Positions 4,247 through 45,805 of a DNA stretch of 64,000 bases are shown one piece after another. The notes beneath the pieces are model-generated. The model was not told the origin of the DNA. It did not search any database and was given only the letters and a program-made list of their open reading frames with translations. The translations under genes and the position numbers were made by a program. Position 1 is the first letter of the stretch. Each line of letters opens with the position of its first letter. Source of the stretch: a virus (Duplodnaviria > Caudoviricetes); the IMG/VR virus record IMGVR_UViG_3300032216_000903, positions 1 to 64,000 of that record. The stretch is one strand, 5' to 3'.

Positions 4247-4254
4247 ATAATTAC

Positions 4255-4789: not shown

Positions 4790-4817
4790 ATTGTACAGTC
4801 ACTTCAATGGTTGTACA
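4790..4817 (-). promoter_or_regulatory. Minus-strand TGTAC-N17-TACAAT promoter-like site
   Basis: Same motif and spacing as the plus-strand early promoters, reversed orientation. Confidence 0.5.
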
Positions 4818-4863
4818 TGTCCAAATTACAATCGATCTCCCTCAGCGCGTTGTAAAACTTTAA

Positions 4864-4891
4864 TGTACTTTTCAGAAAGTTATGATATTAT
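4864..4891 (+). promoter_or_regulatory. Early-type promoter TGTAC-N17-TATTAT (gp55)
   Basis: Member of the 12-copy plus-strand motif family. Confidence 0.7.
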
Positions 4892-4897
4892 GTCCAC

Positions 4898-5542
4898 ATG
4901 AAAGATAGCATCACGGCAGAACCAACAACTAAAAAAATCAAACCGTCAGAGCGTCCTCACTACGTCAACAACGCCGAGTTCTCAAAGGCGATCGTCGACT
5001 ACGTAATCCTGGCAAAAGCCGCAAAGGCCAAAGGCAAGCCCCTCCCTCAGCTTTCTGAGTACATCGGGACGTGCCTGCTGAAGATCGCCGAGGGCCTCTC
5101 TCGTAAACCCAACTTCGTTCGATACACCTATCGCGAGGACATGGTGATGGACGGCGTCGAGAATTGCATCCGCGCCGTACCCAACTTCAACGTGAACGTC
5201 GGCACTCGTACCGGACTGCCGAACGCCTTTGCTTACTTCACACAGATCTGCTTCTTTGCATTCATTCGTCGCATTCAGAAGGAGAAGAAGTCACAGGACA
5301 TCAAATTGCTTTACATGGAATCGGCAGGTATCGAGAACTTTGCCAACTTCGGCGAGGGCGAGGCCGGTGACTCTCCTGCGGTCGGCGAGGGAATCGTGGA
5401 ACGGGTCCGTCACAAGGTCGAGCAGATCCATAAGCGCGACGCGGCCGTCAAGGCGTTTGGTAAGGCGATCAAGAAGGACAAGAAGAAGGCGGCCAAGAAG
5501 TCGACCACTTCGTCCCTCGAGCTGTTTTCTCTCCTGTCCTAA
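4898..5542 (+). CDS. gp55: Late transcription sigma factor gp55
   Basis: HYVNNAEF...YIGTCLLKIAEGLSRKPNFVRYTYREDMVMDGVENC...NAFAYFTQICFFAFIRRIQKEKK. Confidence 0.95.
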   Translation: MKDSITAEPTTKKIKPSERPHYVNNAEFSKAIVDYVILAKAAKAKGKPLPQLSEYIGTCLLKIAEGLSRKPNFVRYTYREDMVMDGVENCIRAVPNFNVNVGTRTGLPNAFAYFTQICFFAFIRRIQKEKKSQDIKLLYMESAGIENFANFGEGEAGDSPAVGEGIVERVRHKVEQIHKRDAAVKAFGKAIKKDKKKAAKKSTTSSLELFSLLS

Positions 5543-5549
5543 TTACTAT

Positions 5550-6617: not shown

Positions 6618-6619
6618 TC

Positions 6620-8332
6620 ATGTTAACCTTTCGTTCCGTCTCCTTCAAGAACTTCCTATCGACCGGCGACGTGCCTATCACGATTCGCCTGGATCAAAGT
6701 CCTACGACCCTGATCGTCGGTGCCAACGGCGCAGGCAAATCCACGATGCTCGACGCGATCTGCTTCGGCCTATTCGGCAAGCCCCATCGCGACATCAAGA
6801 ATCCGCAGCTCATCAATTCCGTCAACGGAAAGAACTGCGAGGTCCAGATCGAGTTCACGATCGGCCAAGACAAGTATCGAGTCGTCCGTGGATACAAGCC
6901 GTCCGTGTTCGAGATCTGGAAGAACGGAACGCTCCTGAATCAGGAATCCCACTCGCGCGACTATCAGGCCGTCCTCGAGTCGAACATCCTGAAGATGAAC
7001 AAGAAGTCATTCAATCAGATCGTCGTCCTCGGTGCCGGCAACTTCGTGCCGTTCATGCAGATGCCGGTATGGGATCGCCGCGGCGTCATTGAAGAACTGC
7101 TGGACATCTCCGTATTCTCGGACATGAATACGCTGATCAAGGAGAAGTTGGCCAAGTCCCGTGAGGATCTCAAGGAGACGGAGAATCAACTGGCGATCTT
7201 CAAGGAAAAGGTGAGACTGCAGACGAAGCACCTGAACGACCTCAAGCAGATCGATGCAAACAACACGCAGTCGATTCGAGACGAGATCGCGACCATTGAG
7301 TCTCAGGTCTCGACCAAGCAGGAAGAGGCGAATGAATATCAATCCGTCCTCGATGCCAACACGAAGGCCGTTACGGCCGCGCAGAAGGCGGCGCAGAAGA
7401 AACGCCAGGCCCTGATCGGATATCAGACGCAGATTCAATCCAATCTTACGAGGATCCGTACGGAATCCGAGTTCTATCAGAAGAACGACGAGTGTCCGAC
7501 GTGTCAGCAGAAGATCGAGAGCGACATCAAGGAACGAAGGACCCATCAGTGCTCGACCAAGTCGGCCGAATTCAACGACGGTCTGAGTAAATTGAATGAA
7601 GCACTGACTCAGGCAAATGCGGAACTGGATCAGGCCAATGCTCGAATAAACGAGATGATGAAGGTCCAGTCGTCCCTCTCGACCGTCAACGCGACGATTC
7701 AGTCCCTTCACAATCAGATCGCGGCGCTGAATAAGAAACTCAAGGACGCATCGGCCACGTCCGACACCAAGCAAGCCGAGGACGAGCTGCAGGTCAGTCA
7801 GCAGGAACACCTACGGCTCACTCAGACACGCTCGAATCAAATAGACGAACGTTCTTATCTGGACGTCATTCAAGAGATGCTGCGTGATACGGGCATCAAG
7901 GCGAAGGTCATCAAGCAGTACGTGCCGCTCATGAATAAGTTCATCAATCAGTACTTGTCCGTCCTTGACTTCTTCGTATCATTCACGCTGGACGATTCGT
8001 TCAACGAGACGATCCGATCCCGTCATCGGGACGACTTCTCGTACGCCTCATTCTCGGAGGGGGAAAAGATGCGCATCAATCTGGCGATCCTGTTCACGTG
8101 GCGTCAGATCGCCAAGCTCAAGAATCACAACGCGACTAACCTGCTGATCCTCGACGAGACGTTTGACTCGTCTCTGGACGGCGAGGGCGTCGAGAATCTG
8201 CTTCGAATCCTCAACACGCTGACGGCCACCAACGTCTTCGTCATCACCCACAAGCCGGATGCGATGGCCGACAAGATGGCGGCCAAGCTGGAATTCGCTA
8301 AAACCGGCAACTTTTCGACCCTCAAAGCGTAA
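6620..8332 (+). CDS. gp46: Recombination ATPase subunit gp46 (Rad50/SbcC-like)
   Basis: GANGAGKS, CPTC zinc hook, FSEGEK signature, LILDE, ITH. Confidence 0.96.
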   Translation: MLTFRSVSFKNFLSTGDVPITIRLDQSPTTLIVGANGAGKSTMLDAICFGLFGKPHRDIKNPQLINSVNGKNCEVQIEFTIGQDKYRVVRGYKPSVFEIWKNGTLLNQESHSRDYQAVLESNILKMNKKSFNQIVVLGAGNFVPFMQMPVWDRRGVIEELLDISVFSDMNTLIKEKLAKSREDLKETENQLAIFKEKVRLQTKHLNDLKQIDANNTQSIRDEIATIESQVSTKQEEANEYQSVLDANTKAVTAAQKAAQKKRQALIGYQTQIQSNLTRIRTESEFYQKNDECPTCQQKIESDIKERRTHQCSTKSAEFNDGLSKLNEALTQANAELDQANARINEMMKVQSSLSTVNATIQSLHNQIAALNKKLKDASATSDTKQAEDELQVSQQEHLRLTQTRSNQIDERSYLDVIQEMLRDTGIKAKVIKQYVPLMNKFINQYLSVLDFFVSFTLDDSFNETIRSRHRDDFSYASFSEGEKMRINLAILFTWRQIAKLKNHNATNLLILDETFDSSLDGEGVENLLRILNTLTATNVFVITHKPDAMADKMAAKLEFAKTGNFSTLKA

Positions 8333-8427: not shown

Positions 8428-10686
8428 ATGATCGAGCAAGTCAATATGAATCAGCAGGGGATGCTGGCCAAACTCTTGGCCAAGGAGAATCTCCGGATCC
8501 AACACGGCAACTACGCCACGGCGTTCTTTGACACCAAGTCGCGTGTCCTTGGCCTTCCAATCTGGAAGACGTCAGGCAAGAACGTTTATGACTTGCTCGT
8601 CGGACACGAAGTCGGCCACGCCCTCTTCACTCCGATGTCTGGCATTGAAAAGTTCCGTCAGGAACTCCCCGAGGTGCCATTCGACATCTGCAACATAGTC
8701 GAGGACATTCGCATCGAGCGCATGATTCAAGACACGTACCCGGGCCTCGCGACAGCGTTTCGTCAAGCATACGAGACGCTGGTCGCGGACAACTTTTTCG
8801 GTCTCAAAGGCAAGGACATCTCTAAGATGAATTTTGCCGATCGTCTCAACCTTCATGCCAAGGCTGGCAAAGCCGTGGCGGTCAATCTGACGGCCGACGA
8901 GCAGGCGATCTACGACCGCTGCATCAAGGCTCAGGACTTCGACGAAGTCATTCAGATCTGCAAGGACATCGCCCATCTGGTCGGCAAGCGCAAGCAAGAC
9001 GAGGCTGGATCTCCGGCGGCTGGTAAGTCCGAGAGCGACAAGCAGGAGGATGCTCCTCAGGCTCCCTCGAACGATCAGGCCAACGACAGTCAAGACGAGC
9101 AGCAGGAGTCTGGATCTTCCGAAGGATCCGGCGACGACTCCGAGCAGGACTCAAACGACGAAGCGACCGACGGCCAAGGCGACGGTGCCGGCGACGGCGA
9201 GGGTAACGGCAGCGGTCCGGCCGACGAGGAGGCTGAAGACTCCGACAAGCAGGCTCCGATGGCTGGCCCTCAGGCTGGCAACACGACGCTCAAGAGCGAG
9301 CTCACCTCCGAGACGGCCAAGTCCTTCGAGCAGGCTCTCAAGTCGATTCAGCAGACGGACGAGTACGTCCACTTCCTCGCTCCTCGCAAGGAAGCGGTCC
9401 AGAGCGTCATCACTCCCTATCAAAAGATCCTGGAGGCTCGTCAGTCGAAGCCTCGCTACGTGGGTTACATGACTCATCCGGCCACCAAGGCTCACTACAC
9501 GGAGACGAAGGCGTCCGCTAAGAAGTACGTGGCCGGTCTGACTCGCGAGTTCGAGATGCGCAAGGCGGCTCATCAGTATTCTCGAGCGTCCGTCGCCAAG
9601 ACTGGCACGCTCAACATGGCCAAGCTCCATTCGTATCGCTACTCGGAGGACATCTTCAAGTCGATCACCAAGCTGGCCAACGCCAAGAATCACGGCATGA
9701 TGATGTTCGTCGACTACTCGAGCTCGATGACATACTCGCTCGGCCACGTCCTCGAGCACACGGTCAACCTCGTCATGTTCTGCCGCAGCCTCAACATCCC
9801 GTTCGAAGTCTACGGCTTTACGAATCCCTCGGTCGGCAAGCCGCTCGCTGAGACGGCCCACGACGAGATCAGTCTGTCATACCTGTCCCTGATTCAGACG
9901 TTCTCGAGCAAGATGAGCAAGGCCGAGTTTGATCTGGCCATCGAGCAGACCCTCGCGCAGGCTTTCTTTTACAAGGGCGGCGGCCGCTCGGTCGGCTACG
10001 AGCTCGGCAGCGGCAGTTACTGTCCGGTGATGTCGGCCCACGAAGGTCTGTCTGGCACGCCGCTTCAAGAATGCGTCGTGGCCGCTCACATCCTCGTCAA
10101 CGAGTTTCGCAAGGCGAATCCGGTGCAGAAGATGAACGTGGTGTTCCTCACGGACGGCGACGGATCCATGCTTCATCGTCATCAGACTGAAGCCGGATCG
10201 AAAGCCGCTGGATCCAGCTACATGGCTTCCAAGATGAAGGGCAACCTCGGCGGCTGCGAAGTCACTCTGAACGAAGGCTCTTATTCGTACGAGAAACTGA
10301 TTCAGAATCTCCGCAAGGCGACCGGATCGACCGTCGTTGGATTCTTCATTCCGAATTCTCCTCAGCAGGCGATTCGATATGCCGAGCGCGCGATGGAATA
10401 CACTGGCAAGGCGCAGTCGAATGCGATCGCTTGGAAAGATGCCCGCACGACCTATCGCAAAGACAACTGTCTGATCGTCAAGGGTGGATACGGCTTCGAC
10501 GAGTATTATGTGCTGGCCACCGGCAAGGATCTGGACATCGACACGGAAGACGAGTTCGATACGGACTTCGAGGTCGTCGACATCAAGAAGTCTCAAGGCA
10601 AACTGGCCCGCGCCTTCACGGAATTCAACAACACGAAGCGCACTCAGCGCGTGATCCTCTCAAAATTCAGCCAGGTGATCGCCTGA
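8428..10686 (+). CDS. HEXXH metallopeptidase-like N-domain + acidic linker + vWA domain (CobT-like)
   Basis: HEVGH, EDIRIE; MIDAS DYSSSM, GTP, LTDGD; adjacent to a MoxR ATPase. Confidence 0.85.
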   Translation: MIEQVNMNQQGMLAKLLAKENLRIQHGNYATAFFDTKSRVLGLPIWKTSGKNVYDLLVGHEVGHALFTPMSGIEKFRQELPEVPFDICNIVEDIRIERMIQDTYPGLATAFRQAYETLVADNFFGLKGKDISKMNFADRLNLHAKAGKAVAVNLTADEQAIYDRCIKAQDFDEVIQICKDIAHLVGKRKQDEAGSPAAGKSESDKQEDAPQAPSNDQANDSQDEQQESGSSEGSGDDSEQDSNDEATDGQGDGAGDGEGNGSGPADEEAEDSDKQAPMAGPQAGNTTLKSELTSETAKSFEQALKSIQQTDEYVHFLAPRKEAVQSVITPYQKILEARQSKPRYVGYMTHPATKAHYTETKASAKKYVAGLTREFEMRKAAHQYSRASVAKTGTLNMAKLHSYRYSEDIFKSITKLANAKNHGMMMFVDYSSSMTYSLGHVLEHTVNLVMFCRSLNIPFEVYGFTNPSVGKPLAETAHDEISLSYLSLIQTFSSKMSKAEFDLAIEQTLAQAFFYKGGGRSVGYELGSGSYCPVMSAHEGLSGTPLQECVVAAHILVNEFRKANPVQKMNVVFLTDGDGSMLHRHQTEAGSKAAGSSYMASKMKGNLGGCEVTLNEGSYSYEKLIQNLRKATGSTVVGFFIPNSPQQAIRYAERAMEYTGKAQSNAIAWKDARTTYRKDNCLIVKGGYGFDEYYVLATGKDLDIDTEDEFDTDFEVVDIKKSQGKLARAFTEFNNTKRTQRVILSKFSQVIA

Positions 10687-12817: not shown

Positions 12818-13489
12818 ATGCTTAAACTATCCAAATTCACGGTCGACGTTCTGAAGAACTTCGCCTCCATCAATCCCAACCTCGTGATCAAGGAGGGCTC
12901 GACCTTCTCGACGATCGCTGAGGCAAAAAACATCATGGCGTCCGTCACGGTCCCCGAGAACTTCTCTCGCACCTTTGGCGTGTACGACCTGAACGAGTTC
13001 ATCGCCGCCTTGAGCCTTCTGGAAGATCCGACGATCGACCTGCTGGAAGACTCGGCGATCCTCTCGAACGACTCCACGACGGTCAAGTACCGCTTCGCGA
13101 ATCCGACCGTCCTGACCACTCCGTCCAAGGAGATCAAGATGCCCTCGACCGACGTGACCGTCAAGCTCACCAACGACCTGCTCGGCAAGGTCCGTAAGGC
13201 GGCAGGCGTCTTGGGCCACTCGGTCGTCGCGCTGAAAGGTACGTCGTCCGGAGCCCTGAGCCTCGCGGTCCTCGATCCGAAGGACTCGTCGGCCAACACC
13301 TACACGGTCGCTCTGACCGAGAAGCACACGCTCGAGAAGGACTTCTCCTTCGAGTTCCTGATCGACAACCTCAAGGTCCTCTCTGGTGACTACACGGTCG
13401 CTGTCTCTTCGAAGCTGATCTCCGAATGGACTCACGCGGACTTCAAGGTAAATTACTTCATCGCTCTGGAGAAGACCTCAACCATCTGA
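12818..13489 (+). CDS. gp45: Sliding clamp gp45
   Basis: LKNFASINPNL...FGVYDLNEF...GDYTV...YFIALE. Confidence 0.95.
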   Translation: MLKLSKFTVDVLKNFASINPNLVIKEGSTFSTIAEAKNIMASVTVPENFSRTFGVYDLNEFIAALSLLEDPTIDLLEDSAILSNDSTTVKYRFANPTVLTTPSKEIKMPSTDVTVKLTNDLLGKVRKAAGVLGHSVVALKGTSSGALSLAVLDPKDSSANTYTVALTEKHTLEKDFSFEFLIDNLKVLSGDYTVAVSSKLISEWTHADFKVNYFIALEKTSTI

Positions 13490-17355: not shown

Positions 17356-17469
17356 TTTACTGAAACCGATCGGTTTCACTGGTCAGTAAAAATGTATCCT
17401 CGTAAAATAGGGTCCGTGAGGTAATTTGGTTATGTACTTCACGGACCCTTCATGTTATATTATGTGGAC

Positions 17470-20028
17470 ATGGCTAAACATCTAGACCTTCAGTTCTATA
17501 CTTCCGTTGCTCGTAACATGAACATGCTGCTGGTTCGCGGATATGACCGCGACGGCAAGCGAGTTCAAGAAAAGGTTCGCTTTCGTCCCACGTTTTACCT
17601 CGAAGCCAAGGATAAGACCAAGACGAAGTTCAAGGCGCTCGACGGTACTTCGATCGAGCCTATGCAATTCGACTCGATGTCCGAGTCTCGTAAGTTCGTC
17701 GACACCTACAAGGACGTCCCTTCATTCAAGGTGTACGGCAACGATCGGCACATTCCGGCTTTCATCTACTCGCAGTTTCCCCTCTCCGTTCACTATCAGC
17801 AGTCGATGATTCGCATATGCACTCTCGACATCGAGGTAGGTAAAGAAGCGTGGGGATATTCAGAGGCGTCTGAAGCCAAGAATCCAATCACGGCTATCAC
17901 GGTCAAGAACTCGACGGATAACACATGTCATACGTGGGGCCTGAAGGCATATGATTCTTCCAAGGCCATCACGACTCGCTACTCGATTGACTATCGACAG
18001 TTCAAGACCGAAGGGCAGATGCTCGAGGACTTCCTTCGCTGGTGGATTCATCCGGACAACAATCCCGACATCATCACCGGTTGGAACGTCCGCGCCTTCG
18101 ACGTGCCGTACCTGATCACTCGACTCAGTAAGCTCGGCGGAGAGGAAGCCTCTCGCGTCATGAGTCCTTGGAATCTGATCGAGGCCAAGGAAGTCAAGCT
18201 CAAGGGTCGTCAGCAGCTCCTCTATGAGTTGGTCGGCATTCAGCAGCTCGACTACATGGATCTCTTTCAAAAGTTTGGCTATACGTACGGAGCACAGGAA
18301 CAGTATACGCTGAATCACATCGCCAAGGTCGTCCTCAATGAGAATAAGCTCGAGTATGATGGCACACTCGATGATCTGTATCATGCGGATCATCAGAAGT
18401 TCATCGACTACAACATCAAGGACGTCGAGCTCGTAGATCGTCTGGAAGAGAAGCTCGGTCTGATTCAGCTCGTTCTCATGATGGCTTACATGGGCGGCGT
18501 GAACTACACGGACACGCTCGGCACCACGGCGATCTGGGATTCAATCATCTTTCGTAAGTTGGCCAACAAGAACATCATCGTTCCATTTCAGCCCTCGCCT
18601 CCGTCTCATGTTCCTCAATTTGCCGGCGGCTACGTCAAGGATGTGCAGGAAGGAATGCACGAGTGGGTCCTCTCTTCCGACGTCAACTCGGAGTATCCCA
18701 ATCTCATCGTGCAGTACAACATGTCGCCCGAGACTTACATCGCACACACGAAGATGGAAGTGAATCCGGACCTCATCATCGATCGAGTCCTGAACGATCA
18801 GCCGATCTTCGACGAAGATCCCGAGGTATGTGTGGCCGCCAACGGCGCATGCTTTCGTAAGGACATCAAGGGCATCATTCCGCTGATCGTGGAAGATCTC
18901 TATGAACGCCGCGTGAAGATCAAGAAGGAAGCCGGTACCAACAAGAGGAAGCTCGAGTCTCTGCCCAAGGATTCAGGCGAGCGGCACATGGTCGAGAAGG
19001 TAATCGCCAAGCTCGACACGGAGCAGATGGCCGTGAAGATCCTTCTGAACTCCATGTACGGCGCGATCGGCAACAAGTACTTTCGCTACTTCAACATCGA
19101 GGTCGCCGAAGCCGTGACTCTGTCCGGTCAGACGGCCATTCGCCTCGCTGAAGCTACCGTGAATCGCTACGTGTCGAAGATAGTAGGCATCGAGAAGGAT
19201 CGAGTGTTGGCCGTCGATACCGACTCCGTGTATGTGACTCTGAAGGACGTGATCGATAAGTTCAAGCCAAAAGATCCTATCAAGTTCCTCGACGAGTTCT
19301 ACGAGAAAGGTATCGGCCTAGAACTCGAAGTGGCGTTCAATAAGCTCGCCAAGGCTACAAACGCCTACGTGAATCGCATGATCATGAAGCGTGAGGCCAT
19401 CGCGGATCGTGCCGTCTGGACGGCCAAGAAGCGGTACATTCTTAATGTACTCGATAATGAAGGTGTGACATATGCCGAACCCAAGCTGAAGATGATGGGC
19501 ATCGAGGCAATCAAGTCTTCGACTCCTGCCGTCTGTCGTGGTGAAATGAAGCGCATGTTCAAGATCATCATGACTGGCGACAAGAAGAAGACACAGGATT
19601 CTATCGCCGAGTTTCGTTCTCGCTTCTCGAGTCTGGCGCCGATTGAAGTCGCCTTTCCTCGTGGCGTATCGGATGTAGATGGATGGGAATCTAAATCGAC
19701 TATCTATCAGAAAGGTACACCGATCCATGTTCGTGGCTCACTTCTCTACAATCATTTGATTGCGGCTAAGGGCCTCGAGTCGAAGTACAAGACGATCAAG
19801 TCTGGCGAGAAGATTCGATTCATCTATCTCAAATTGCCAAATGAGATTCAAGAGAACGTGATCTCGTTTCCAGCCGTGACCGATCTACCAAAAGAGTTTG
19901 GCCTACATAATTCTGTCGACTATGACAAGCAGTTCGAGAAGACATTCCTCGAGCCGCTTCAGATCATTCTTAAATCGATTGGATGGACATCGGAAGACTC
20001 TGGCTCACTCGAAGAATTTTTTGGATAA
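17470..20028 (+). CDS. gp43: Family B DNA polymerase gp43
   Basis: Exo motifs [16 protein letters not shown]; polymerase motifs [24 protein letters not shown]. Confidence 0.97.
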
Positions 20029-33480: not shown

Positions 33481-33867
33481 ATGAATCAACAAACAGAACG
33501 TGAATCAGTAAGAGCCCTTCGCGAATGCATCGAGTTACAACTCAGCAAGTCGCGTGACTATCAGAATCCTAATTCTCGAATCAAGCAGGCAGAATACTAT
33601 CCGAATGGCATCATCACTCTCCTCGACATCATTCATGCCAAGAAGCTTCGCATGGATTCCGTAGTCGCGGCCATGCAGCATGATCCTGAGTATAAGCCTA
33701 ACTTCGAATCTCTTGAAGACTCGGCTAAGGACATGATTAACTACTGCTCATTCATCGTCTCTTACTGTCGTGGCAAGATGGAAGGTCAGAATTCAGATCG
33801 CGACTTTCTCAATCGTCGCATATCGAAACCATCCAACATCGTGCAGGAACTCTTAAACTTAAAATGA
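33481..33867 (+). CDS. Nucleotide-modification-associated (Nmad1-like) all-alpha protein
   Basis: KSRDYQ...K..R...ESLEDSAKDMINY; first gene of the modification operon. Confidence 0.7.
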   Translation: MNQQTERESVRALRECIELQLSKSRDYQNPNSRIKQAEYYPNGIITLLDIIHAKKLRMDSVVAAMQHDPEYKPNFESLEDSAKDMINYCSFIVSYCRGKMEGQNSDRDFLNRRISKPSNIVQELLNLK

Positions 33868-34556
33868 AAAACAAAAAAATGAATGTGATGGATCTTCAGT
33901 GGCACTTCTTCGAGTCTTTGATGGCCGAAGAATTCGTGACCGATAAGTCTGGCGTAAAGACGATCGAGCTGGTCGGTGCTTCGTTTATTGCCGATGAGCC
34001 TACGATCTTTGGCACGGTCAATGAAGACTACATCAATCGTGAACTCGAGTGGTATGAGTCTCAGTCTCTGAATGTGAATGATATTCCCGGCAAGGTTCCC
34101 GAGATCTGGAAGCAGGTCGCTGACAAGGACGGCTTCATCAACTCAAACTACGGATGGTGCATCTGGTCTCCAATGAACTTCGATCAGTACAAGAAGTGCC
34201 GAGCCGAGCTGATTGCAAACAAGGACACACGTAGAGCCATCATGATCTACACTCGTCCGACGATGCATGAAGATGCCTTTCATAGCGGCCGATCCGACTT
34301 CATGTGCACCAATACCGTGCAGTACCTGATTCGCGAAGGCAAGATGCACTGCGTCGTACAAATGCGCTCGAATGATGTGGTATTCGGATATCGCAACGAT
34401 CGCGCTTGGCAGAAGCACGTCCTCGATACCTTGGTCGCCGACTATAATCGCCTGACTGAATCTAAGATCGAAGCCGGTGACATTCACTGGAACGTCGGCA
34501 GCCTACACATCTACGAGAGGCACTTCAAACTGGTCGAGGACTGGTATAAGCCATGA
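33864..34556 (+). CDS. gp42: dCMP hydroxymethylase (T4 gp42-type, thymidylate synthase fold)
   Basis: INSNYGW, DFMCT catalytic Cys, MRSNDVVFGYRNDRAWQKHVL, WNVGSLHIY; Asp at the cytosine-specificity position (34398-34400). Confidence 0.9.
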   Translation: MKNKKMNVMDLQWHFFESLMAEEFVTDKSGVKTIELVGASFIADEPTIFGTVNEDYINRELEWYESQSLNVNDIPGKVPEIWKQVADKDGFINSNYGWCIWSPMNFDQYKKCRAELIANKDTRRAIMIYTRPTMHEDAFHSGRSDFMCTNTVQYLIREGKMHCVVQMRSNDVVFGYRNDRAWQKHVLDTLVADYNRLTESKIEAGDIHWNVGSLHIYERHFKLVEDWYKP

Positions 34557-34984
34557 GCGACTGGGATTCTAGATTCTTGAAGATGGCTACAGAGGTCGCC
34601 GCGTGGTCCAAAGATCCGTCTCGAAAGATTGGCTGCGTGATCGTCAGGCATCGTCGCATCTTGGCATCCGGCTATAACGGGTTTCCTCGTGGAATCAAGG
34701 ATACGCCCGAAAGGCTTAATACACGTGAACTCAAGTACAAATACGTGGTTCATGCGGAGATGAATGCGATCTACAATGCGATTCAACACGGAGTATCTTT
34801 AGACGGTGCTACGCTGTATGCCATCGGATTGCCCATCTGTTCCGAGTGTGCCAAGGGCATCATTCAGGTAGGCATCCATAGGGTCGTCATTCCTAAACAG
34901 GACATTCCAGAGCACTGGCGAGAATCTTGTGGATTCACGTACAACCTCTTCGACGAAGCTAGTATTCAATACGACATGGTATGA
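34553..34984 (+). CDS. cd: dCMP deaminase
   Basis: SKDPS, GYNGFPRG, HAEMNA, PICSEC. Confidence 0.93.
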   Translation: MSDWDSRFLKMATEVAAWSKDPSRKIGCVIVRHRRILASGYNGFPRGIKDTPERLNTRELKYKYVVHAEMNAIYNAIQHGVSLDGATLYAIGLPICSECAKGIIQVGIHRVVIPKQDIPEHWRESCGFTYNLFDEASIQYDMV

Positions 34985-35382
34985 CAAACGTAACTGACTT
35001 CATCGTCGATCATCGAGCTTCCGATCGAGTCCTTGTGCTGGGCATGTCTCCGGCCAAGAACAATCGGCCGTTCAAGAACTGCTCGCTCAATCGACTGAGT
35101 AAATGGATGAAGATCATAGGTCAAGGAGAGTGGTCGTTTCACAACGTCATTCCAGACGTGCATGGATCGGCCAACATATGCGACGTAGATCCACAGGCGC
35201 TTTACGACGCCGTGAACGGCAAGGAAAGGGTGATCGCGCTCGGCACGTTCGTCTCGAGCGTATGCTCTAAATACGGTATAGAACACCATCGCATCCATCA
35301 TCCGTCTCCGAGGAATAGGTCCCTCAATGATCCTGGAGTCGAGAGGAAGATGCTGAGCACACTGAAAGAATACTTAAAATGA
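34981..35382 (+). CDS. Uracil-DNA-glycosylase-superfamily small protein
   Basis: VLVLGMSP, FHNV, VIALG, HHPSPRN. Confidence 0.7.
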   Translation: MTNVTDFIVDHRASDRVLVLGMSPAKNNRPFKNCSLNRLSKWMKIIGQGEWSFHNVIPDVHGSANICDVDPQALYDAVNGKERVIALGTFVSSVCSKYGIEHHRIHHPSPRNRSLNDPGVERKMLSTLKEYLK

Positions 35383-36590
35383 TTGAACCAACACCATACT
35401 ATCAGGACTTCCTTCGCTACTTCAGGCTCGCCAAGGAACAGCAGGAGAAGTGCAACGTGTCGTTGAATCCTCCGTACGGAATGCTCACGCACGCAGAATC
35501 CAAAATGAACGACGGACTCCTCGAGAACGTGGAACTCTACGACGTCGTCGAGCGTAAGTACGCCGGATTCTCTCAGATCGTAAACGACTGCTTCTATGGA
35601 TGGACTGATAGACATCCGTACTGGAAGAAGATGGAGGCAGGTAAGATCACTCGTCAACGAGATCAGGTCGCCCATGATTGGACCGGTAAGCATGCACACT
35701 TTGGCCTGGCCGAATGGCTCTACATCTTCATTCTCCATCGAGTATGCGGTTCCGGCATCAACTACGCTCAGAAGCCTTCGGGCTATCATAACACTCTGCT
35801 TTTGAAGCTTCATCGAGCCAAGTCGATCGAGGACATGTGTGAGATGGTCAAGAACGAGCAGAACTCCTTCTACACTTCCGTAGGATATCAGTTCCCTGCG
35901 TTTCCTAAGCCTCCGGCTGGATATAAGCGCGGAGGCGACTACTACCTCTGTGAGTTCGCTCCTCGACTGGCTCGTGATCTGGCAGACTGGCTTCAAACAC
36001 CGGCATTTGGAAAGAAAACTCTACGCGGTATCGGCGAGTTCATGCTCGATTGGAATGTCGTAAACGGCCTTCGTCAGTATCACTTTCAATATGCGGCCAT
36101 CATAGCCGACATCGCAGACTGGTATCCTCAATACGTCGATCGCCAATCGATGTTCTTCTATGGATCGAACGCCGAGCAGTGCATCTCGTATCTGGCTCGT
36201 CCTCTCAAGAAGATGAAGACTCAGGCTTTCCTCGACGCCGTGATGGAGATGGCGTGTAAAGATACTAATGAAGTTCCCTACAACATAGAAGACGTCTGCT
36301 GTGACTATATTCGATACTGTACAAATTACGTACGCATGGGCGAGGCATATAATTCCCTCGATCGCGACAAGGTATTCAACTCTTCGAAGATCATTCATCC
36401 GTATGGTCGACAGAAGGCGATGCTCGACCTCGGACTCGTGAAGACGTTCAACGACCCTTCGCAGAACTTCTACTACGACGAGGTGATCAAGGCAAACAAC
36501 CTGACCGAGAGGGAATACATCAAGCTCGTTCAGGATCATCCGAACTACAAGGACTGGATCGGAGTACCAGAAAAATTCCCCACTAAATAA
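35379..36590 (+). CDS. Divergent 5-hmU-DNA-kinase / aGPT-Pplase1-like helical protein (paralogue A)
   Basis: Pattern resembles the family: DGLLENVELYDVVER, ILHRVCG, FQYAAIIAD, YGSNA, NIEDVCCDYIRY; next to gp42 and the PLP enzyme. Confidence 0.55.
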   Translation: MIEPTPYYQDFLRYFRLAKEQQEKCNVSLNPPYGMLTHAESKMNDGLLENVELYDVVERKYAGFSQIVNDCFYGWTDRHPYWKKMEAGKITRQRDQVAHDWTGKHAHFGLAEWLYIFILHRVCGSGINYAQKPSGYHNTLLLKLHRAKSIEDMCEMVKNEQNSFYTSVGYQFPAFPKPPAGYKRGGDYYLCEFAPRLARDLADWLQTPAFGKKTLRGIGEFMLDWNVVNGLRQYHFQYAAIIADIADWYPQYVDRQSMFFYGSNAEQCISYLARPLKKMKTQAFLDAVMEMACKDTNEVPYNIEDVCCDYIRYCTNYVRMGEAYNSLDRDKVFNSSKIIHPYGRQKAMLDLGLVKTFNDPSQNFYYDEVIKANNLTEREYIKLVQDHPNYKDWIGVPEKFPTK

Positions 36591-36594
36591 AATT

Positions 36595-37476
36595 ATGGCA
36601 CACGACGAACACGTAATCGATGGCAACAATAAAGACGTCCCGATGGGAATGTCTTACGAGGAGGCGAAGCAGTACTACCTGAGCCTATGCGAGGGCTGGA
36701 CTCCATACAACAGTTCTCCGATGGTGATCGAGCACGAGGGAGTGCAGGTGGTTCGAGATGACCTGACCGTGGGTACCAAGACTCGAGCCGGCGACCTCCT
36801 CTGCTCAAAGATTCTGAATAAGACCCTCGTGTATTGTCAGCCTCGAGTTGGACTGGCCGGAGTATCTCTATGCGATGTAGCCAAGCGTCACAACAAGGAC
36901 GTAGTCCTATTCATGCCGTCGTCGAAGGAGATCTCGCTCCATCAGGCTTGCTGCATCGAACGCGGAGCCACTCCGATCTTCGAACGCATCGCGGCTATGC
37001 CGAATCTTAACCTCTACGCCAAGAAGTGGGCTGACGAACACAATGCCTGTTTCATTCCTCTGGGTCTGAAGCACGAGCTAGCGACGGCGGCGATCGTGCA
37101 TGCCGCCTCAACGATCCCTGAGCCCGACGAAGTGTACGTGGCTATCTCTACCGGTGTCCTCTCTCGAGCCCTTCAGATCGCTTGGCCGAATGCCAAGTTT
37201 ACCTGCGTCGCCGTGGCTCGCAATCTACAGGCTGGTGAACTTGGTCGTGCTGAAGTCATCTCGGAACCTCTGGCATTTCCACAGTCTGAGAAGAAAGAAA
37301 ATCTACCACCGTTTCCGACCGTTGCCAGTTACGACGGAAAAATTTGGAAATATATTCCCAAGGATGGCAAGAAGCGCCGACTGATGTGGAATGTTGGCCG
37401 TGACCCCATTCTAAAAGACGCATCGATAATTGTAAAGACGGACTCTTATCGTAAATGGAAGAAGGACATGCAATGA
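36595..37476 (+). CDS. PLP-dependent enzyme, fold type II (TrpB/ACC-deaminase-like)
   Basis: VVRDDL..GTKTR (PLP lysine), FIPLGL, AISTGVL, YDGK. Confidence 0.85.
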   Translation: MAHDEHVIDGNNKDVPMGMSYEEAKQYYLSLCEGWTPYNSSPMVIEHEGVQVVRDDLTVGTKTRAGDLLCSKILNKTLVYCQPRVGLAGVSLCDVAKRHNKDVVLFMPSSKEISLHQACCIERGATPIFERIAAMPNLNLYAKKWADEHNACFIPLGLKHELATAAIVHAASTIPEPDEVYVAISTGVLSRALQIAWPNAKFTCVAVARNLQAGELGRAEVISEPLAFPQSEKKENLPPFPTVASYDGKIWKYIPKDGKKRRLMWNVGRDPILKDASIIVKTDSYRKWKKDMQ

Positions 37477-38474
37477 ACGACATTCTATATCCTAACACGG
37501 CTCAGATTACACTCAAGGACGGCAAGCCCAAGGACTCTTGGATGCGCGACTGGACGCATGAGGAGCGCGTGGCGAAGTTCTTTGAGTTCTGTCGTAAGTT
37601 TGACCTTCGTGAGGATAAGCTGCTCAGCGAAGACTATCAGATCTTCTCCCATCGCCTTCACTGGCACGAGCACCCCTTCGTTGAACTCATGACAGGAGTA
37701 AAGGACTCGCGCGATCGCCTCTGGTACGCCCTTGTCTTCTCGTTTACCAATGAGCACTGGGGTACGCTGACTCACCTGATGACGCATGGCATTGATAAGA
37801 CTCGCGAGCACTTTAAGCATAATCGTCATGCTCGATCTGACTTATTTCAGATCTACTATCCCAAGGGTACGGATGTAAAGGAATGGCTCCTGACCGGACC
37901 ATTGAAGGCGGCAAATGCTCTGCATCATCATCTTACAAATGGTAAGAGATACACGATGATGCAGTTTGCCAAGATCCTCGAGGCTCACTTCAAGAAAGAA
38001 CAGAACTTTCGTTCTCCGCTCTATCCGTGTAAGAACACGGCTCGATACGTTGCGATGGCGTTTCCGCACCTCGTAGATCCTGAGTCCGTCCTCTACGGAG
38101 GTACTGGGCATTTCGACGGCATGCATCAGATCTTTCTAGAGAACGTGAATGGCAAGGCTAAGTACGAGATCGATGCGAATGGAGAGTTCGTTCCAAAGAA
38201 TCATCAGGCCAATGTGTGGCTCGCTCAGATGAGTTATCTCTGCGAGCATTCAGATAATCCTATGACTTCTCAGCATTGGTTGAACGTAGAGGATAAGGGA
38301 TGTTTTTTTTACAAACACATTGCGATTACACATGATGTGAAGAGTCCAACGAAGCGCATTCCATACACGTGGATCTTTCCAGAGAATTTCAATCTGGCAA
38401 AGCATCCGGCTGGTAAAGTGATAATCAATGGTAAAACAACTTCACAAATAGATGTACAAGGCTCATTTGACTGA
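37473..38474 (+). CDS. Divergent 5-hmU-DNA-kinase / aGPT-Pplase1-like helical protein (paralogue B)
   Basis: Architecture similar to paralogue A: EDKLL, LVFSFTN, FPHLVDPES..YGGTG, NVEDKGCFFYKH. Confidence 0.5.
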   Translation: MNDILYPNTAQITLKDGKPKDSWMRDWTHEERVAKFFEFCRKFDLREDKLLSEDYQIFSHRLHWHEHPFVELMTGVKDSRDRLWYALVFSFTNEHWGTLTHLMTHGIDKTREHFKHNRHARSDLFQIYYPKGTDVKEWLLTGPLKAANALHHHLTNGKRYTMMQFAKILEAHFKKEQNFRSPLYPCKNTARYVAMAFPHLVDPESVLYGGTGHFDGMHQIFLENVNGKAKYEIDANGEFVPKNHQANVWLAQMSYLCEHSDNPMTSQHWLNVEDKGCFFYKHIAITHDVKSPTKRIPYTWIFPENFNLAKHPAGKVIINGKTTSQIDVQGSFD

Positions 38475-39852: not shown

Positions 39853-40442
39853 CAATAATCAAATCAGAAGGTTACGTATATCACATTCAAAACCCAAACA
39901 ATCCATCGATAGAAGAAGGATATATCGGTGTCGTAAATGCTAAAAAGGGCATCTATCGAAGATTTCGAGAACATTCTACTGATTGCGATCATATGCGAAA
40001 GCGTATAAGAGAAAATAATGTAACATTTGAAAACCATGTTAAAATAGTATTTCAAGGCTCATTAAAAGAATGTTATATGAAAGAACATGAATTGAGATCA
40101 TCTCAAAAAATAGGATGGAATGTAGCTAGTGGTGGAGCTGGATGGAATTATAAAAGTGATATCAGCGATTTATCTAAATATCGTTCTGATATTCAAAAGC
40201 AAAGAATGGAAGATGAAGATTTGAAACGTCGTCAAAGCGAATCATTCAAAAAGAATTATTATGCTAATGAAGAAGTTCAAAAGCTTCGCAGTGATCGAGC
40301 AAAAGAACATATGTCAAATCCTGAAAAACGCGATAAATGTTTAAATGCGATGCATAAAAAAATTAAGTGCCCACATTGTGAATATGAAAATAATGCAGGA
40401 AACGTGAAGTTACATATTAAAAGAAAACATTCAAATGATTAA
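39846..40442 (+). mobile_element. Free-standing GIY-YIG homing endonuclease (Seg-like) with C-terminal C2H2 finger
   Basis: GYVY...GYIG...RF.EH...E...GWN...GG; CPHC...H...H; markedly AT-rich. Confidence 0.85.
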
Positions 40443-41640
40443 ACATGCCAGTATCGTCCCATTGATTGGTGGTAATACACTAGCTTCTCAAAATATATTT
40501 GGTCATAGACCAGACTATCTTCTATCATATTCACCATTTAAAGCCAATGATTCACATCTTGTAAACTATTATGATAATGAAATGCCATATATTTTATTAG
40601 ATGAAGGTGGTAAGTATCCTCACAAGGTCGATGTTGTTACAACGTGTTGCCCTTGTGCAGGTCTCTCGGCTCTATCGCCTTCCGCGTCTGGTACGAGCGC
40701 GATGAACGAATGGATGTTTCGTTCGGCTGAATATGTCCTTGGCAACATCAAGCCTCGTGTATTCTGGGGTGAGAATGCGCCACGTCTGGCATCAAAGCTT
40801 GGAGAACCTGTGGTAGATCGCCTTCGTAAGATTGGCAAGGAGAATGGATATACGTTCTCGATCTTTAAGACCAAGTCAAAAGTACATGGACTCTCACAGG
40901 TCCGTGAACGTACATTCTACTTCTTCTGGCAAGGAGATAAGATTCCGCTCCTCGAGTACTGCAATCATTCTTCCAATGAACGCATCGAGGATACAATCGA
41001 CATGGCAAAGAATGCGGCCAAGAACGACCCGATGTCTCAGATCCTGGCTTCGAAGAAGGTTCCTTCACAGGATCCTTACTATCGCTACCTTCTCGAAGAG
41101 GTTCATGGAGGCATCTCTCATCGCAAGTTTGCCGAGTCACTCACTCGAACGGCCAACGTGCTTCGCTCGATCGAGGGAGCACCGGGTCACGACTACATGC
41201 GAGTCGCCGCTTGGATGGAAAAGAACGGATTCTCTAAGCTCGCTGAACGATCCAAGGGAATGCATCTGAAGCTAGGCATGGGTGGAAACATTATGCGTAA
41301 GCAGATCGAGGTACCGTGCGACGTCATCGGCGCATTTGTCGGTCACATGCCCACGATGCTCACACATCACCGTCACGATCGATTCCTCAACGTCCGTGAG
41401 TGCCTATCGATCATGAAGATGCCTCTGGACTTTCAACTCCTGAATCCGCTTCGCAATCTGAATCACGTATGTCAGAACGTTCCGGTCACGACGGCCGAAC
41501 ATCCGGCTCGAATGGTCAAGATGTTCCTCGAAGATAAGCTTCCGCTCGATGACTACGCGGACGGATTCTTGATTCAGGACAATGTGCGCCAGTGCGTCAC
41601 GTCTGGAGAAGCGGCCTCACTGGAAACATTTATGGCTTAA
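40435..41640 (+). CDS. C5-cytosine DNA methyltransferase-like protein with degenerate SAM-binding motif I
   Basis: PCAGLS (IV), ENA (VI), QVRER (VIII), RFLNVRE (IX), QNVP (X); motif I reads VPLIGG; ends SLETFMA. Confidence 0.8.
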   Translation: MIKHASIVPLIGGNTLASQNIFGHRPDYLLSYSPFKANDSHLVNYYDNEMPYILLDEGGKYPHKVDVVTTCCPCAGLSALSPSASGTSAMNEWMFRSAEYVLGNIKPRVFWGENAPRLASKLGEPVVDRLRKIGKENGYTFSIFKTKSKVHGLSQVRERTFYFFWQGDKIPLLEYCNHSSNERIEDTIDMAKNAAKNDPMSQILASKKVPSQDPYYRYLLEEVHGGISHRKFAESLTRTANVLRSIEGAPGHDYMRVAAWMEKNGFSKLAERSKGMHLKLGMGGNIMRKQIEVPCDVIGAFVGHMPTMLTHHRHDRFLNVRECLSIMKMPLDFQLLNPLRNLNHVCQNVPVTTAEHPARMVKMFLEDKLPLDDYADGFLIQDNVRQCVTSGEAASLETFMA

Positions 41641-41682: not shown

Positions 41683-42756
41683 ATGGCAACATCTACATCA
41701 CTACTCGAACGCCTCAAGAAGGCATCTAAGATCGACGGCGCGGAAGTCATGGCGGACTCAAAGCTATTTGGCGTGAAGGAGTTCACTAAGACGGAAGTGC
41801 CCATGATCAACGCGGCGCTCTCTGGTTCACTCGACGGCGGCCTGACCTCTGGCCTGACCGTGCTGGCTGGTCCCTCTAAACACTTCAAGACCTCGTTCGG
41901 CCTGCTCATGGTCGGCGCCTATCTGAAGCAGAATCCGGATGCCGTGTGCATGTTCTACGACTCCGAGTTTGGATCTCCGCAGTCTTACTTCACCTCGTTC
42001 GGCATCGATCCCTCTCGAGTCCTTCATACGCCGATCACGAACGTCGAAGAACTCAAGTTCGATCTGGTCTCTCAGCTCCAGAACATCAATCGCGGCGACA
42101 AGGTCATCATCATGATCGACTCCATCGGCAATCTGGCTTCAAAGAAAGAAGTGGAGGACGCGATCAACGAGAAGTCCGTGGCCGACATGACTCGAGCAAA
42201 AGCTCTGAAGGGTCTGTTCCGCATGGTCACTCCCATGTTGACTCTGAAGGACATTCCTCTCTTGGCGGTCAATCACATCTATATGACTCAGGAGATGTAC
42301 TCTAAGCCGGTCGTCTCTGGTGGTACCGGCATCTACTACTCGGCCGATACGATCTGGATCATCGGTCGTCAGCAGGATAAAGACGGAGACGAGATGAAGG
42401 GCTATCACTTCATCATCAACGTCGAGAAGTCCCGCTTCGTCCGCGAGAAGTCCAAGATCCCGATCTCTGTGTCTTGGGAAGGTGGCATCGAGAGGAACTC
42501 CGGTCTGCTCGACGTTGCGTTCGAGGGTGGATATGTTACCAAGCCTCAGGTCGGCTGGTACGTCGCCCACGATCCGAAGACCAAGAAGGACCTGTCCAAG
42601 AAGCTCCGCGCCGATCAGACCTTCGACGACTCGTTCTGGAATTCCATCTACGAAAAGACTGACTTCAAAGAATATGTTAAGAACCGCTACTCAATGGGCC
42701 ACAAGGAAATGCTTACGTCTCGTCCGAATGCTGGGTCTGAAGAAGATGCCGATTGA
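41683..42756 (+). CDS. uvsX: RecA-like recombinase UvsX
   Basis: AGPSKHFKT, FYDSEFG, DSIGNLASKKE, EKSRFVREK. Confidence 0.96.
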   Translation: MATSTSLLERLKKASKIDGAEVMADSKLFGVKEFTKTEVPMINAALSGSLDGGLTSGLTVLAGPSKHFKTSFGLLMVGAYLKQNPDAVCMFYDSEFGSPQSYFTSFGIDPSRVLHTPITNVEELKFDLVSQLQNINRGDKVIIMIDSIGNLASKKEVEDAINEKSVADMTRAKALKGLFRMVTPMLTLKDIPLLAVNHIYMTQEMYSKPVVSGGTGIYYSADTIWIIGRQQDKDGDEMKGYHFIINVEKSRFVREKSKIPISVSWEGGIERNSGLLDVAFEGGYVTKPQVGWYVAHDPKTKKDLSKKLRADQTFDDSFWNSIYEKTDFKEYVKNRYSMGHKEMLTSRPNAGSEEDAD

Positions 42757-44423: not shown

Positions 44424-45083
44424 ATGAAGAACACGGTAGAACTAATCGGCCACTACGGCTCAGATCAAATACACGCATGCTCCGCATGGACGTCAACGTC
44501 ACGAGAACTATCAGATGAAAAAGTACAACGCATTCCTAAACTTCTCAAGATGTTGGCTGATCAAGGTCATCACACTCCCTTTGAAAAGTCTAGCCTTCAT
44601 TTTCTGGTCGATTGTGATATTGCTTCTCACATTCACATACTTAAGCATCGGGTTGGCGTTTCTGTCAATGGTGAGTCTGCAAGGTATAAAGAACTTAAAG
44701 AAGACAAGTACTACCTCCCCGAAGACTGGAGAGGAGTAGCCGATTCGGAACTCGCTGAATACAACGTCGAGACGAACTGGGCAAACAATCTGAAGGCATA
44801 CACGGAGAAGGGCAACGAGCTGTACCATCGCTGCATCAAGGATCTGGAACCGGTACTCGGTCGTAAGCGTGCTAAAGAGTCCGCACGATTCTTCAAGACG
44901 TACAACTCGCGGATTCAGGCCGACGTGATGTTCAACTGGCGATCCTTTGCCCACTTCTTGAATCTGAGGAACAAACCAGATGCTCAGCTCGAGATTCGTG
45001 AGATCGCAGCCGAGATGCTTCGTCTGGTCAAGGAGATTCCCGGCAATCCGTACGAGCACACCGTCGCGGCATTTGGACTATGA
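44424..45083 (+). CDS. thyX: Flavin-dependent thymidylate synthase ThyX
   Basis: HHTPFE, KHRVGVSVNGESARY, NWRSFAHFLNLR, AQLEIR. Confidence 0.93.
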   Translation: MKNTVELIGHYGSDQIHACSAWTSTSRELSDEKVQRIPKLLKMLADQGHHTPFEKSSLHFLVDCDIASHIHILKHRVGVSVNGESARYKELKEDKYYLPEDWRGVADSELAEYNVETNWANNLKAYTEKGNELYHRCIKDLEPVLGRKRAKESARFFKTYNSRIQADVMFNWRSFAHFLNLRNKPDAQLEIREIAAEMLRLVKEIPGNPYEHTVAAFGL

Positions 45084-45805
45084 AGATACCGTATCGCATC
45101 GACTTGGCAGGAGGTTGGCTCGATCAGCCCTTCGTCTCTAAGCTGTGTCCCGGGTGCGTACTTGGTATCTCCATCGAGCCGACCGTCGAATTCAACGATC
45201 GATCTGGCATGGCGACGAGCACTCGATATAAAGCCATCGATCTTTGGCAGAATGAAATTCCACAAGGAGATTCAGAGAGACTCGCCAAGATCTTATTCGC
45301 ATATGAGAATCCTCCTGGCACGGTCGAAGTGGCTGGTTCGCAGGACGCGATCAACCTCGTGATGCCTGCACTGAAGCGATTGAATTACACAGGCAACTAT
45401 TGGCCATCGAGCATTGAAGTCATAGATGATGAGGCTACACTCTCTTGGCTCGAATCGTGCTTATATCTCATACCTCTTGAACCTCGAAATGGCGAATATG
45501 ATGTCTTGAGTAATCAGAATGTCACTCAGGAAAATGTAGCCAGACTGGCATCGGCGGCCGATTTATGTTGGAATGCCATTCGAAATCACGATGTAGCTTC
45601 ACTTGGTAAACATATGCGAGAGTCGTTTGAAGCTCAGGTGTATATGTTTCCAAATATGATCAACTCGCATATACAGAAGTTCATAAATCAGTATCAGTCA
45701 CAGGCACTCGGATGGAAGATCTCTGGAGCAGGCGGAGGAGGCTACTTGATATTTGTCAGCGACAGGCCCATAATCAACAGCATTCAAATAAAGATACGCC
45801 GATGA
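45080..45805 (+). CDS. GHMP-family sugar kinase
   Basis: PYRIDLAGG, SGMATS, GSQD, KISGAGGGG. Confidence 0.85.
   Translation: MKIPYRIDLAGGWLDQPFVSKLCPGCVLGISIEPTVEFNDRSGMATSTRYKAIDLWQNEIPQGDSERLAKILFAYENPPGTVEVAGSQDAINLVMPALKRLNYTGNYWPSSIEVIDDEATLSWLESCLYLIPLEPRNGEYDVLSNQNVTQENVARLASAADLCWNAIRNHDVASLGKHMRESFEAQVYMFPNMINSHIQKFINQYQSQALGWKISGAGGGGYLIFVSDRPIINSIQIKIRR

Follow-up and report, generated by a model that had tools for sequence, protein, structure and literature searches.

The open reading frame (ORF) at positions 40435-41640 of the viral sequence IMGVR_UViG_3300032216_000903 encodes a protein with the fold of the DNA cytosine C5-methyltransferases (C5-MTases), here named MTL. The window that was analysed is the first 64 kb (64,000 nucleotides) of this 94.8-kb IMG/VR contig, which is about 52% complete. 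The best explanation of what we observed is that MTL is an active enzyme and not a decayed methylase, that it belongs to a large clade found only in phages, and that it is part of an island of genes for the modification of DNA through 5-hydroxymethylcytosine (hmC). As to its function, the reading that we favour, with a probability of roughly 0.37, is that of an enzyme tethered to the sliding clamp which acts on hmC in newly made phage DNA by covalent chemistry at C6 of the base. MTL would then be an hmC transferase or editor, as the initial annotation of the ORF had suggested. An hmC substrate and a chemistry other than methylation are favoured because of the linkage of the gene to hydroxymethylases, the dCTPase of a cultured relative (phage XG4), the clamp-type tail, the room made beside C5 and the conserved, reshaped cofactor pocket.

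The contig comes from a T4-like phage, with homologues of gp55, gp47, gp46, gp45, gp44, gp62, regA, gp43, gp42, uvsX and gp41. No close relatives at the DNA level were found in a search of a phage collection.

Catalytic motifs and cofactor pocket of MTL

All the catalytic motifs of MTL are intact. The PC, ENA, QxRxR and RE motifs listed in the initial annotation could each be located, as P73-C74 (motif IV), E113-N114-A115 (motif VI), Q155-V-R157-E-R159 (motif VIII) and R321-E322 (motif IX). Its reading of the motif I site as VPLIGG (V8-P9-L10-I11-G12-G13) and of motif X as QN (Q347-N348) also proved right. The Pfam family PF00145 matches the protein with an E-value of 1.9e-13 (51 bits, cut-off 22), the match being limited to profile positions 56-304 and leaving the part with motifs I-III unmatched, and two PHROG families named 'DNA methyltransferase' match as well. 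A direct search of the MTL sequence against PDB chains gave no match. When a profile of the family was used for the PDB search, motifs IV, VI, VIII, IX and X aligned to M.HaeIII, M.HhaI, DNMT1, MET1 and CmoX, and the first 40-60 residues of MTL were never aligned.

Differences from a methylase are found in the motifs for S-adenosylmethionine (SAM). Alignment with Escherichia coli Dcm by hhalign placed V8 on the Phe of motif I, P9 on the Ala and L10 on the first Gly, with G12-G13 falling on the GG pair; MTL consequently lacks both the adenine-stacking aromatic residue and the first Gly of FxGxGG. In motif X the Asn is kept and the Gly is replaced by Gln. In methylases strand 2 ends in a Glu that binds the SAM ribose (motif II). 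This region was aligned by no sequence method; strand 2 of the model described below ends in S31-Y32-S33 with no conserved acid, and D39 lies within the following helix.

The AlphaFold model of MTL, built from 102 relatives, has a pLDDT of 96. Using VIA-align it superposed on M.HaeIII (1DCT) with a Z-score of 25.7 (rmsd 3.2 Å over 280 residues) and on M.HhaI with a Z-score of 25.6. Since the superposed span runs from residue 1 to about residue 368, the cofactor subdomain is structurally present. MTL thus shares with M.HhaI, M.HaeIII and Dcm, the enzymes of PF00145, the two-domain fold, the Pro-Cys, Glu-Asn, Gln-x-Arg-x-Arg and Arg-Glu motifs and the Asn of motif X. It differs from them by having xPL(I/V)GG instead of FxGxGG, no alignable motif II Glu, PCA and not PCQ, QN and not GN, and HG in place of YG before motif VIII, as well as by its polymerase-like C-terminal tail and by its occurrence only in phage contexts that include a dCMP hydroxymethylase.

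These features are shared by a large family. Over 2,000 clusters (90% identity, E <= 1e-5) contain relatives of MTL, most of them nameless, many of about 395 aa and many from marine sources such as Tara. At 50% identity there are 680 representatives with E <= 0.001, 221 of which are below 1e-30. The motifs xPL(I/V)GG, (C/P)PCAGLS, GENAP, HGxPQxRxRTFYFFW and QNVP were seen again in 135 representatives, whose identity goes down to about 29%. Columns were counted in an alignment of 102 sequences that includes relatives down to about 26% identity. C74, E113, R157 and R159 are each present in 102/102. In the motif I region position 8 is V in 49 sequences and I in 47 and is never aromatic, P9 is found in 101 and L10 in 100, and of the GG pair G12 is invariant (102/102) and G13 is kept in 101; in motif X the counts are 101 for Q347 and 97 for N348. 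The motif III site, position 56, is acidic in 83 sequences (D in 75, E in 8). Position 31, where strand 2 ends, is S in 89 and T in 10 and is followed by an aromatic residue (Y32), and position 39 is acidic in 99. Finally, H151 (101/102), K279 (99/102) and H311 (92/102), together with N38 and D39, are near-invariant residues peculiar to this family.

The initial annotation had called the SAM motif degenerate. In the sense of decay this did not hold, the variant residues being near-invariant across 102 diverse relatives: the altered pocket is not the product of decay because P9, L10, G12 and Q347 hardly vary, and these columns show purifying selection on it and not degeneration. A decaying gene or pseudogene is ruled out by the intact frame and the very strong conservation.

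Directly after the catalytic Cys the family has Ala (A75, 94/102), at the site of Gln82 in M.HhaI. In that enzyme the engineered change Q82A reduces methyl transfer by a factor of about 16 and creates room next to C5 and to the group being transferred (PMC3526304).

Some members of the family are longer (P0199, P0266, P0204 and P0172, of 557-1,462 aa, from short metagenome contigs). One long distant relative carries a CXXC zinc finger, and another combines C2H2 fingers with a weak Tet/JBP-like segment (22.8 bits, under the cut-off).

To our knowledge, CmoX is the only natural C5-MTase homologue that uses another cofactor. It is a phage DNA cytosine C5-carboxymethyltransferase (PDB 8YF3) which keeps the adenosine-binding residues Phe-25, Glu-47, Phe-48 and Asp-69 and changes only Asn304 to Arg (Arg-350) (PMC12783734). 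Both CmoX and MTL are phage C5-MTase homologues of hypermodification pathways, they match in structure (Z 23.6) and both lack the Gln after the catalytic Cys. Nevertheless they differ around that Cys (SPPC in CmoX, CCPC in MTL) and in motif X (Arg-350 against Asn348), and CmoX is in fact the inverse of MTL, which keeps the Asn and alters the motifs on the adenosine side. A carboxymethyltransferase of the CmoX type is therefore ruled out for MTL on the defining residues of CmoX. No match to TIGR00740, for the companion protein CmoA, was found in the 94.8-kb of the contig, which is about 52% complete.

The other phage proteins with which MTL can be compared are the TET-associated C5-MT clades III-VI, in which the catalytic Cys is kept, motifs VIII, IX and X are lacking or disrupted, and some members have no detectable methylase activity (Burke et al. 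2021, PMC8256090). MTL resembles them in its altered motifs and in its occurrence in cytosine hypermodification clusters with glycosyltransferases. Judged by their descriptions, MTL differs from these clades in that motifs VIII and IX are intact and in that it accompanies a hydroxymethylase acting at the nucleotide level, whereas the clades accompany TET. The Tet/JBP family (PF12851) gave no match in this incomplete contig, in a search in which the control genomes were also silent.

Linkage to dCMP hydroxymethylases and the polymerase-like tail

The claim that this is an hmC-making phage is supported by the sequence of the gp42 homologue, which is about 60% identical to T4 gp42 and matches 1B5E with an E-value of 1e-91. 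This predicted enzyme contains SDFMC and RSNDVVFGYRND, with Asp at the positions of L143, D169 and N177 of E. coli ThyA. Asp at these three positions is the criterion for a dCMP hydroxymethylase (Lee et al. 2026, PMC13326640), while Asn177 marks thymidylate synthase and Asn169 marks 5-hydroxy-dCMP synthase (PMC13326640). The Asp at the D169 position, where such a synthase has Asn, rules out a 5-hydroxy-dCMP synthase.

The initial annotation had named a distribution independent of gp42 as an argument against its proposal of an hmC transferase or editor. What we observed is linkage, which holds in the close, the cultured and the distant sets of relatives. The close clade consists of 80 IMG/VR loci with 53-93% identity. 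A gp42 homologue with the RSxD...D signature lies 2-6 kb away in every one of the 28 loci that extend at least 7 kb upstream.

Among cultured phages the family was found in just two groups, the cyanophages of the S-TIM5 type and Pseudoalteromonas phage XG4. Cyanophage S-TIM54 (Aurunvirus; OP053362.1) has an MTL homologue annotated as 'DNA methyase', located 2 kb from a gene annotated as 'ThyA' (9114-9956, minus strand). The latter reads RSNDMATGVPLD, with Asp at the position of Asn177 of E. coli ThyA, which predicts a dCMP-specific C5-modifying enzyme and not a thymidylate synthase. In Pseudoalteromonas phage vB_Psh_XG4 (PP712099.1) the MTL homologue lies in an unannotated cluster of eight genes (100-7552), with the order gp42 homologue, HAD phosphatase-like protein, sugar nucleotidyltransferase/kinase, two glycosyltransferase-like proteins, MTL and, directly after it, a homologue of the T4 gp56 dCTPase (E 4e-41). 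From its gene content this cluster looks like a complete predicted pathway for glycosylated hmC in a cultured phage.

The distant clade comprises 48 IMG/VR records that are 35-49% identical to a representative sequence (P0182). A ThyA-family gene was found in 24 of these records, and in 12 of the 13 that are at least 40% complete. It is often placed 0.3-6 kb from the MTL gene, and several records have a second, canonical ThyA elsewhere. The ThyA homologues within 10 kb of a distant MTL have Asp at the N177 site in 20/20 cases and the RSND sequence in 19/20.

A scan of prokaryotic genomes, which was limited by its search patterns and took one genome for each of 185,579 species, gave 11 MTL loci, all of them in metagenome bins; the family was found in no isolate genome and in no restriction-modification context. 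A gene of the gp42 type is present at nine of these loci, and the other two have no upstream sequence. The loci look phage-like, most of them showing genes of T4-like phages, one (L220) being too short for its context to be seen. One of them is a 425-kb contig of a Candidatus Pacearchaeota metagenome-assembled genome (JBBACR010000001.1), with the MTL homologue and the gp42-type gene about 6 kb apart, and is probably a large virus contig that was binned with an archaeal genome. The control was a set of 35 viral records that encode a Dcm-type methylase, and no ThyA-family gene was present in any of them. It is a weak control since these records are small enterobacterial proviruses.

A second feature of MTL is its C-terminal tail. 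After a linker of lower confidence in the model, the protein ends in ...GEAASLETFMA, and L396 and F399 of this tail are invariant in 16 relatives. The DNA polymerase gp43 of the same phage ends in ...SGSLEEFFG, and the protein encoded upstream of MTL, which has an SGNH hydrolase domain, ends in SLETFFE. These three are the only ones among 202 ORFs of the contig (of at least 80 aa) with a terminal SL[DE]xF motif. In T4 the corresponding tails are SLDFLFG in gp43 and SLDFLYEAND in gp55, and both bind the gp45 clamp. The presumed docking partner of the MTL tail is the gp45 homologue of this phage (27.5% identity to T4 gp45, E 6e-16).

The tails also vary together. Across lineages (loci L087-L167) those of MTL, of a glycosyltransferase-like protein and of a neighbouring 334-aa protein follow the type of the polymerase tail. 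One lineage has a polymerase ending in ...TSLF, with MTL ending in ...KSII or ...NSTF, the 334-aa neighbour in ...KSVF and a 168-aa protein in ...KLF; in another locus (L155) the polymerase tail is ASLDEFFA and the MTL tail ATLEEFLV. Prediction of a complex between the gp45 trimer and residues 362-401 of MTL gave a score of 0.38 (best control 0.01), which passes a mark attained by 58 of 80 solved complexes and by 2 of 110 mismatched pairs and counts as weak support, as do all passes at or below 0.60. At least 68% of the contacts agreed between runs, and the pLDDT of the partner was at least 40. This pass may reflect mere likeness to a solved complex of a clamp with a polymerase tail.

The shared and co-varying tails suggest that DNA-modifying enzymes of these phages are recruited by the sliding clamp. 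By inference, MTL and the enzymes that work with it would bind to the clamp of the phage and act on newly made phage DNA, which speaks against a role mainly on host DNA. A literature search found no paper describing the MTL family, nor any on clamp-type tails of phage DNA-modifying enzymes.

Proposed function and its alternatives

In the mechanism that we propose, the SLETFMA tail would dock MTL on gp45 in the manner of the polymerase tail, and the enzyme would travel on newly replicated DNA. With its retained motifs it would flip a cytosine-type base into the pocket, where Glu113 and Arg157/Arg159 would hold the base and Cys74 would add to C6; an attack at C6 is expected because the Cys/Glu/Arg set is intact. 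The base would be mostly or only hmC, and the adduct would lose its hydroxyl to give a 5-methylene intermediate of the thymidylate synthase type. Capture of this intermediate by a nucleophile X would yield a 5-CH2-X cytosine. What was once the SAM pocket would, in its rebuilt form, bind or position this partner and not serve a standard methyl transfer. The background chemistry invoked in the initial annotation was found in the literature, where C5-MTases are reported to dehydroxymethylate hmC when SAM is absent (PMC11347137), and the required reactivity thus exists in the C5-MTase fold.

Several points weigh against this reading. The linkage in the close clade counts as roughly one observation, because it is largely inherited synteny. 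The glycosyltransferases next to MTL in XG4 and in the distant clades do not need MTL in order to use hmC. Features compatible with SAM are kept in the pocket (G12-G13, Asn348, which corresponds to Asn304 of M.HhaI, and the mostly acidic motif III residue), and the Rossmann-like subdomain superposes entirely on M.HhaI and M.HaeIII. The CXXC and Tet/JBP-like fusions of the long relatives are most simply read, from their domains, as a methylase feeding an oxidase. Moreover no homologue of the gp56 dCTPase was found in the incomplete 94.8-kb contig, in S-TIM54 or in a complete viral record of the family (G037), and the replacement of cytosine in this phage may be incomplete. The absence from the contig is not evidence that the phage lacks the gene, because the contig is incomplete.

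The foremost alternative is that MTL is an ordinary SAM-dependent C5-MTase with a divergent pocket, which rides on the clamp and methylates the cytosines that escape replacement by hmC, or else the host DNA; its purpose would be that every cytosine carries a group at C5. We consider this unlikely, although a good part of the evidence is compatible with it. MTL has the complete fold and all the catalytic motifs, PF00145 matches it above the cut-off, and binding of SAM is compatible with the sequence because the GG pair, Asn348 and the mostly acidic motif III site are kept. The fusions of the distant relatives fit a writer of 5-methylcytosine, residual cytosine is possible because no gp56 homologue was found in the contig, and a clamp-tethered methylase has a parallel in eukaryotes, namely DNMT1 with PCNA. 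However, motif I has no aromatic residue in any member and its first Gly is replaced, the Gly of motif X is Gln, and there is no conserved acid at the end of strand 2, whereas CmoX, even with its changed cofactor, keeps Phe-25, Glu-47, Phe-48 and Asp-69. The Ala at the Gln82 site corresponds to the change that cuts methyl transfer by M.HhaI 16-fold. Nor is there a reason for a plain methylase to occur only alongside dCMP hydroxymethylases and to be missing from the isolate genomes and restriction-modification contexts of the 185,579-species scan. Finally, a gp56 dCTPase homologue is found in XG4, adjoining MTL, and in a distant viral record (G009), and such phages are predicted to leave little unmodified cytosine for a methylase.

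A second alternative, which we regard as quite improbable, is that MTL transfers a one-carbon unit to DNA from a donor that is not SAM, for example methylene-tetrahydrofolate or formaldehyde, and turns stray cytosines into hmC as a back-up of gp42. The covalent C6 chemistry would be the same as that of gp42, the pocket is altered yet conserved, Ala75 gives room beside C5, and C5-MTases can add aldehydes to cytosine in vitro. The strict linkage to gp42-type enzymes and to glycosyltransferases that require hmC would also be accounted for, as would a clamp tail that presumably puts MTL on nascent DNA. On the other hand, we know of no member of the C5-MTase fold that binds folate, and the role would be redundant where a dCTPase is present.

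It is similarly improbable that MTL is a helper or sensor which binds hmC-containing DNA and flips the base, or that it attacks unmodified cytosines of the host, for example by cofactor-free deamination, with hmC shielding the DNA of the phage itself. Either role would explain the restriction of the gene to hmC phages, and C5-MTases deprived of cofactor do promote deamination of C to U; the invariant Cys/Glu/Arg set nevertheless argues for catalysis over binding alone, a tail of the polymerase type suggests work at the replication forks of the phage and not on host DNA, and with Ala75 there is more space at C5, where 5-substituted bases are thus not shut out. The probability left over by the favoured reading and these three alternatives is unassigned.

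The clamp-tethered hmC enzyme can also be put in a stronger form, in which MTL would be the founder of a group of replisome-coupled, SAM-free enzymes that swap the hydroxyl of hmC through a 5-methylene intermediate and give unknown 5-CH2-X bases in abundant marine phages, the adjacent and likewise clamp-tethered SGNH protein of this lineage perhaps first acylating the hydroxyl and so turning it into a leaving group. In this strong form the proposal is speculative and we think it doubtful.

The modification island and its meaning

The features discussed here are collected in Table 1. The gene order in this phage is gp42, the dCMP deaminase gene cd, four lineage-specific ORFs, the 368-aa SGNH protein gene, a small GIY-YIG-like ORF, MTL, uvsX and gp41, and in T4 it is 42, b-gt, segA, uvsX, 40 and 41. 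By this context MTL therefore occupies the slot where T4 keeps an hmC-modifying enzyme. In both phages the slot lies between gene 42 and uvsX; it contains a GIY-YIG endonuclease gene (segA) in T4 and the GIY-YIG-like ORF here. The slot here holds the SGNH protein and MTL whereas in T4 it holds a GT-B glucosyltransferase, and b-gt and a-gt of T4 have no clamp-type tail, unlike MTL and the SGNH protein.

Table 1. Position of MTL and of the other genes considered in the window (all coordinates refer to the window)
Feature	Position	Strand	Remarks
gp45 sliding-clamp homologue	12818..13489	+	
gp43 DNA polymerase	17452..20028	+	
ORF of 128 aa	33481..33867	+	directly upstream of gp42; kept in 31 related loci
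gp42-type dCMP hydroxymethylase	33864..34556	+	
dCMP deaminase (cd)	34553..34984	+	after gp42; same order in 38 related loci
Lineage-specific block, deaminase to SGNH gene	34981..38474	+	ORFs of 133, 403, 293 and 339 aa
SGNH protein, 368 aa	38687..39793	+	upstream gene; kept in 54/80 related loci
ORF of 198 aa	39846..40442	+	GIY-YIG-like N-terminus (by eye); 8-base overlap with MTL start
MTL, C5-methyltransferase-fold protein	40435..41640	+	401 aa, ATG start
C-terminal tail of MTL	41596..41637	+	
UvsX recombinase	41683..42756	+	directly downstream of MTL in 79/80 related loci
ThyX, then directly a 241-aa protein	44424..45805	+	241-aa protein with weak GHMP-kinase C-terminal match

The SGNH protein belongs to no Pfam family and has more than 1,400 unnamed relatives. 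Its model (pLDDT 85) shows a C-terminal domain of the SGNH/GDSL hydrolase fold at residues 145-334, with Z-scores of 14.2 to 2HSJ and 13.7 to a sialate O-acetylesterase, and the motifs GDSH, GN and DxxHH are invariant. The likeness of its N-terminal domain to T4 beta-glucosyltransferase is weak: the BLASTP E-value of 0.06 is not significant, and Foldseek gave 4.3e-4 to 1QKJ, a structure which was not among the top VIA-align rows. The protein is a candidate O-acyltransferase or esterase acting on hmC DNA.

The 198-aa ORF that overlaps the start of MTL ends in a C2H2-type zinc finger (weak Pfam match). As it was found in just one of the 80 related loci, it is likely a mobile insert. The four ORFs of the lineage-specific block belong to no Pfam family, the one of 293 aa matching a PHROG labelled 'threonine dehydratase'. 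The ORFs of 403, 293 and 339 aa are present in 6 of the 80 related viral loci and in one contig from a Bacteroidetes bin (L216), and the small one (34981-35382), in the same island, occurs in few related loci. The block is possibly a set of genes, specific to this lineage, that tailor the modified base.

The 128-aa ORF upstream of gp42 matches a PHROG annotated as 'hydrolase'; it gave no PDB match and a weak atlas lead to DUF1599, and it could be the putative missing enzyme for removal of dCTP. The presence of ThyX in the window means that a flavin-dependent thymidylate synthase coexists with the gp42-type hydroxymethylase in this phage.

In the distant clade the recurrent neighbours of MTL include a glycosyltransferase-like protein, an NAD-dependent sugar epimerase/dehydratase, a sugar nucleotidyltransferase and enzymes of the GT1 and GT2 families, as well as UvsX/RecA and a segment of a family-B DNA polymerase. 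Judged from these gene neighbourhoods, MTL is a constant member of islands for hmC and its decoration, in which the decorating enzymes vary.

The MTL family is large and previously undescribed. Its restriction to phages that also make hmC suggests that it carries out a new step of phage DNA modification and not ordinary methylation. Its members are everywhere annotated as 'DNA-cytosine methylase' and were found only in phage or phage-like contigs. If MTL does not methylate, those annotations are wrong, and a step that is common in the cytosine hypermodification of ocean phages has been overlooked. The question is open to experiment because the cultured S-TIM5-type cyanophages and XG4 carry members of the family. 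Present mapping of hmC relies on engineered methyltransferases and glucosyltransferases, and if MTL proves to be a natural enzyme for derivatising hmC within DNA, it would be a useful tool for this purpose. Recruitment by the clamp, if true, would account for the ability of the modification to keep up with replication in these phages.

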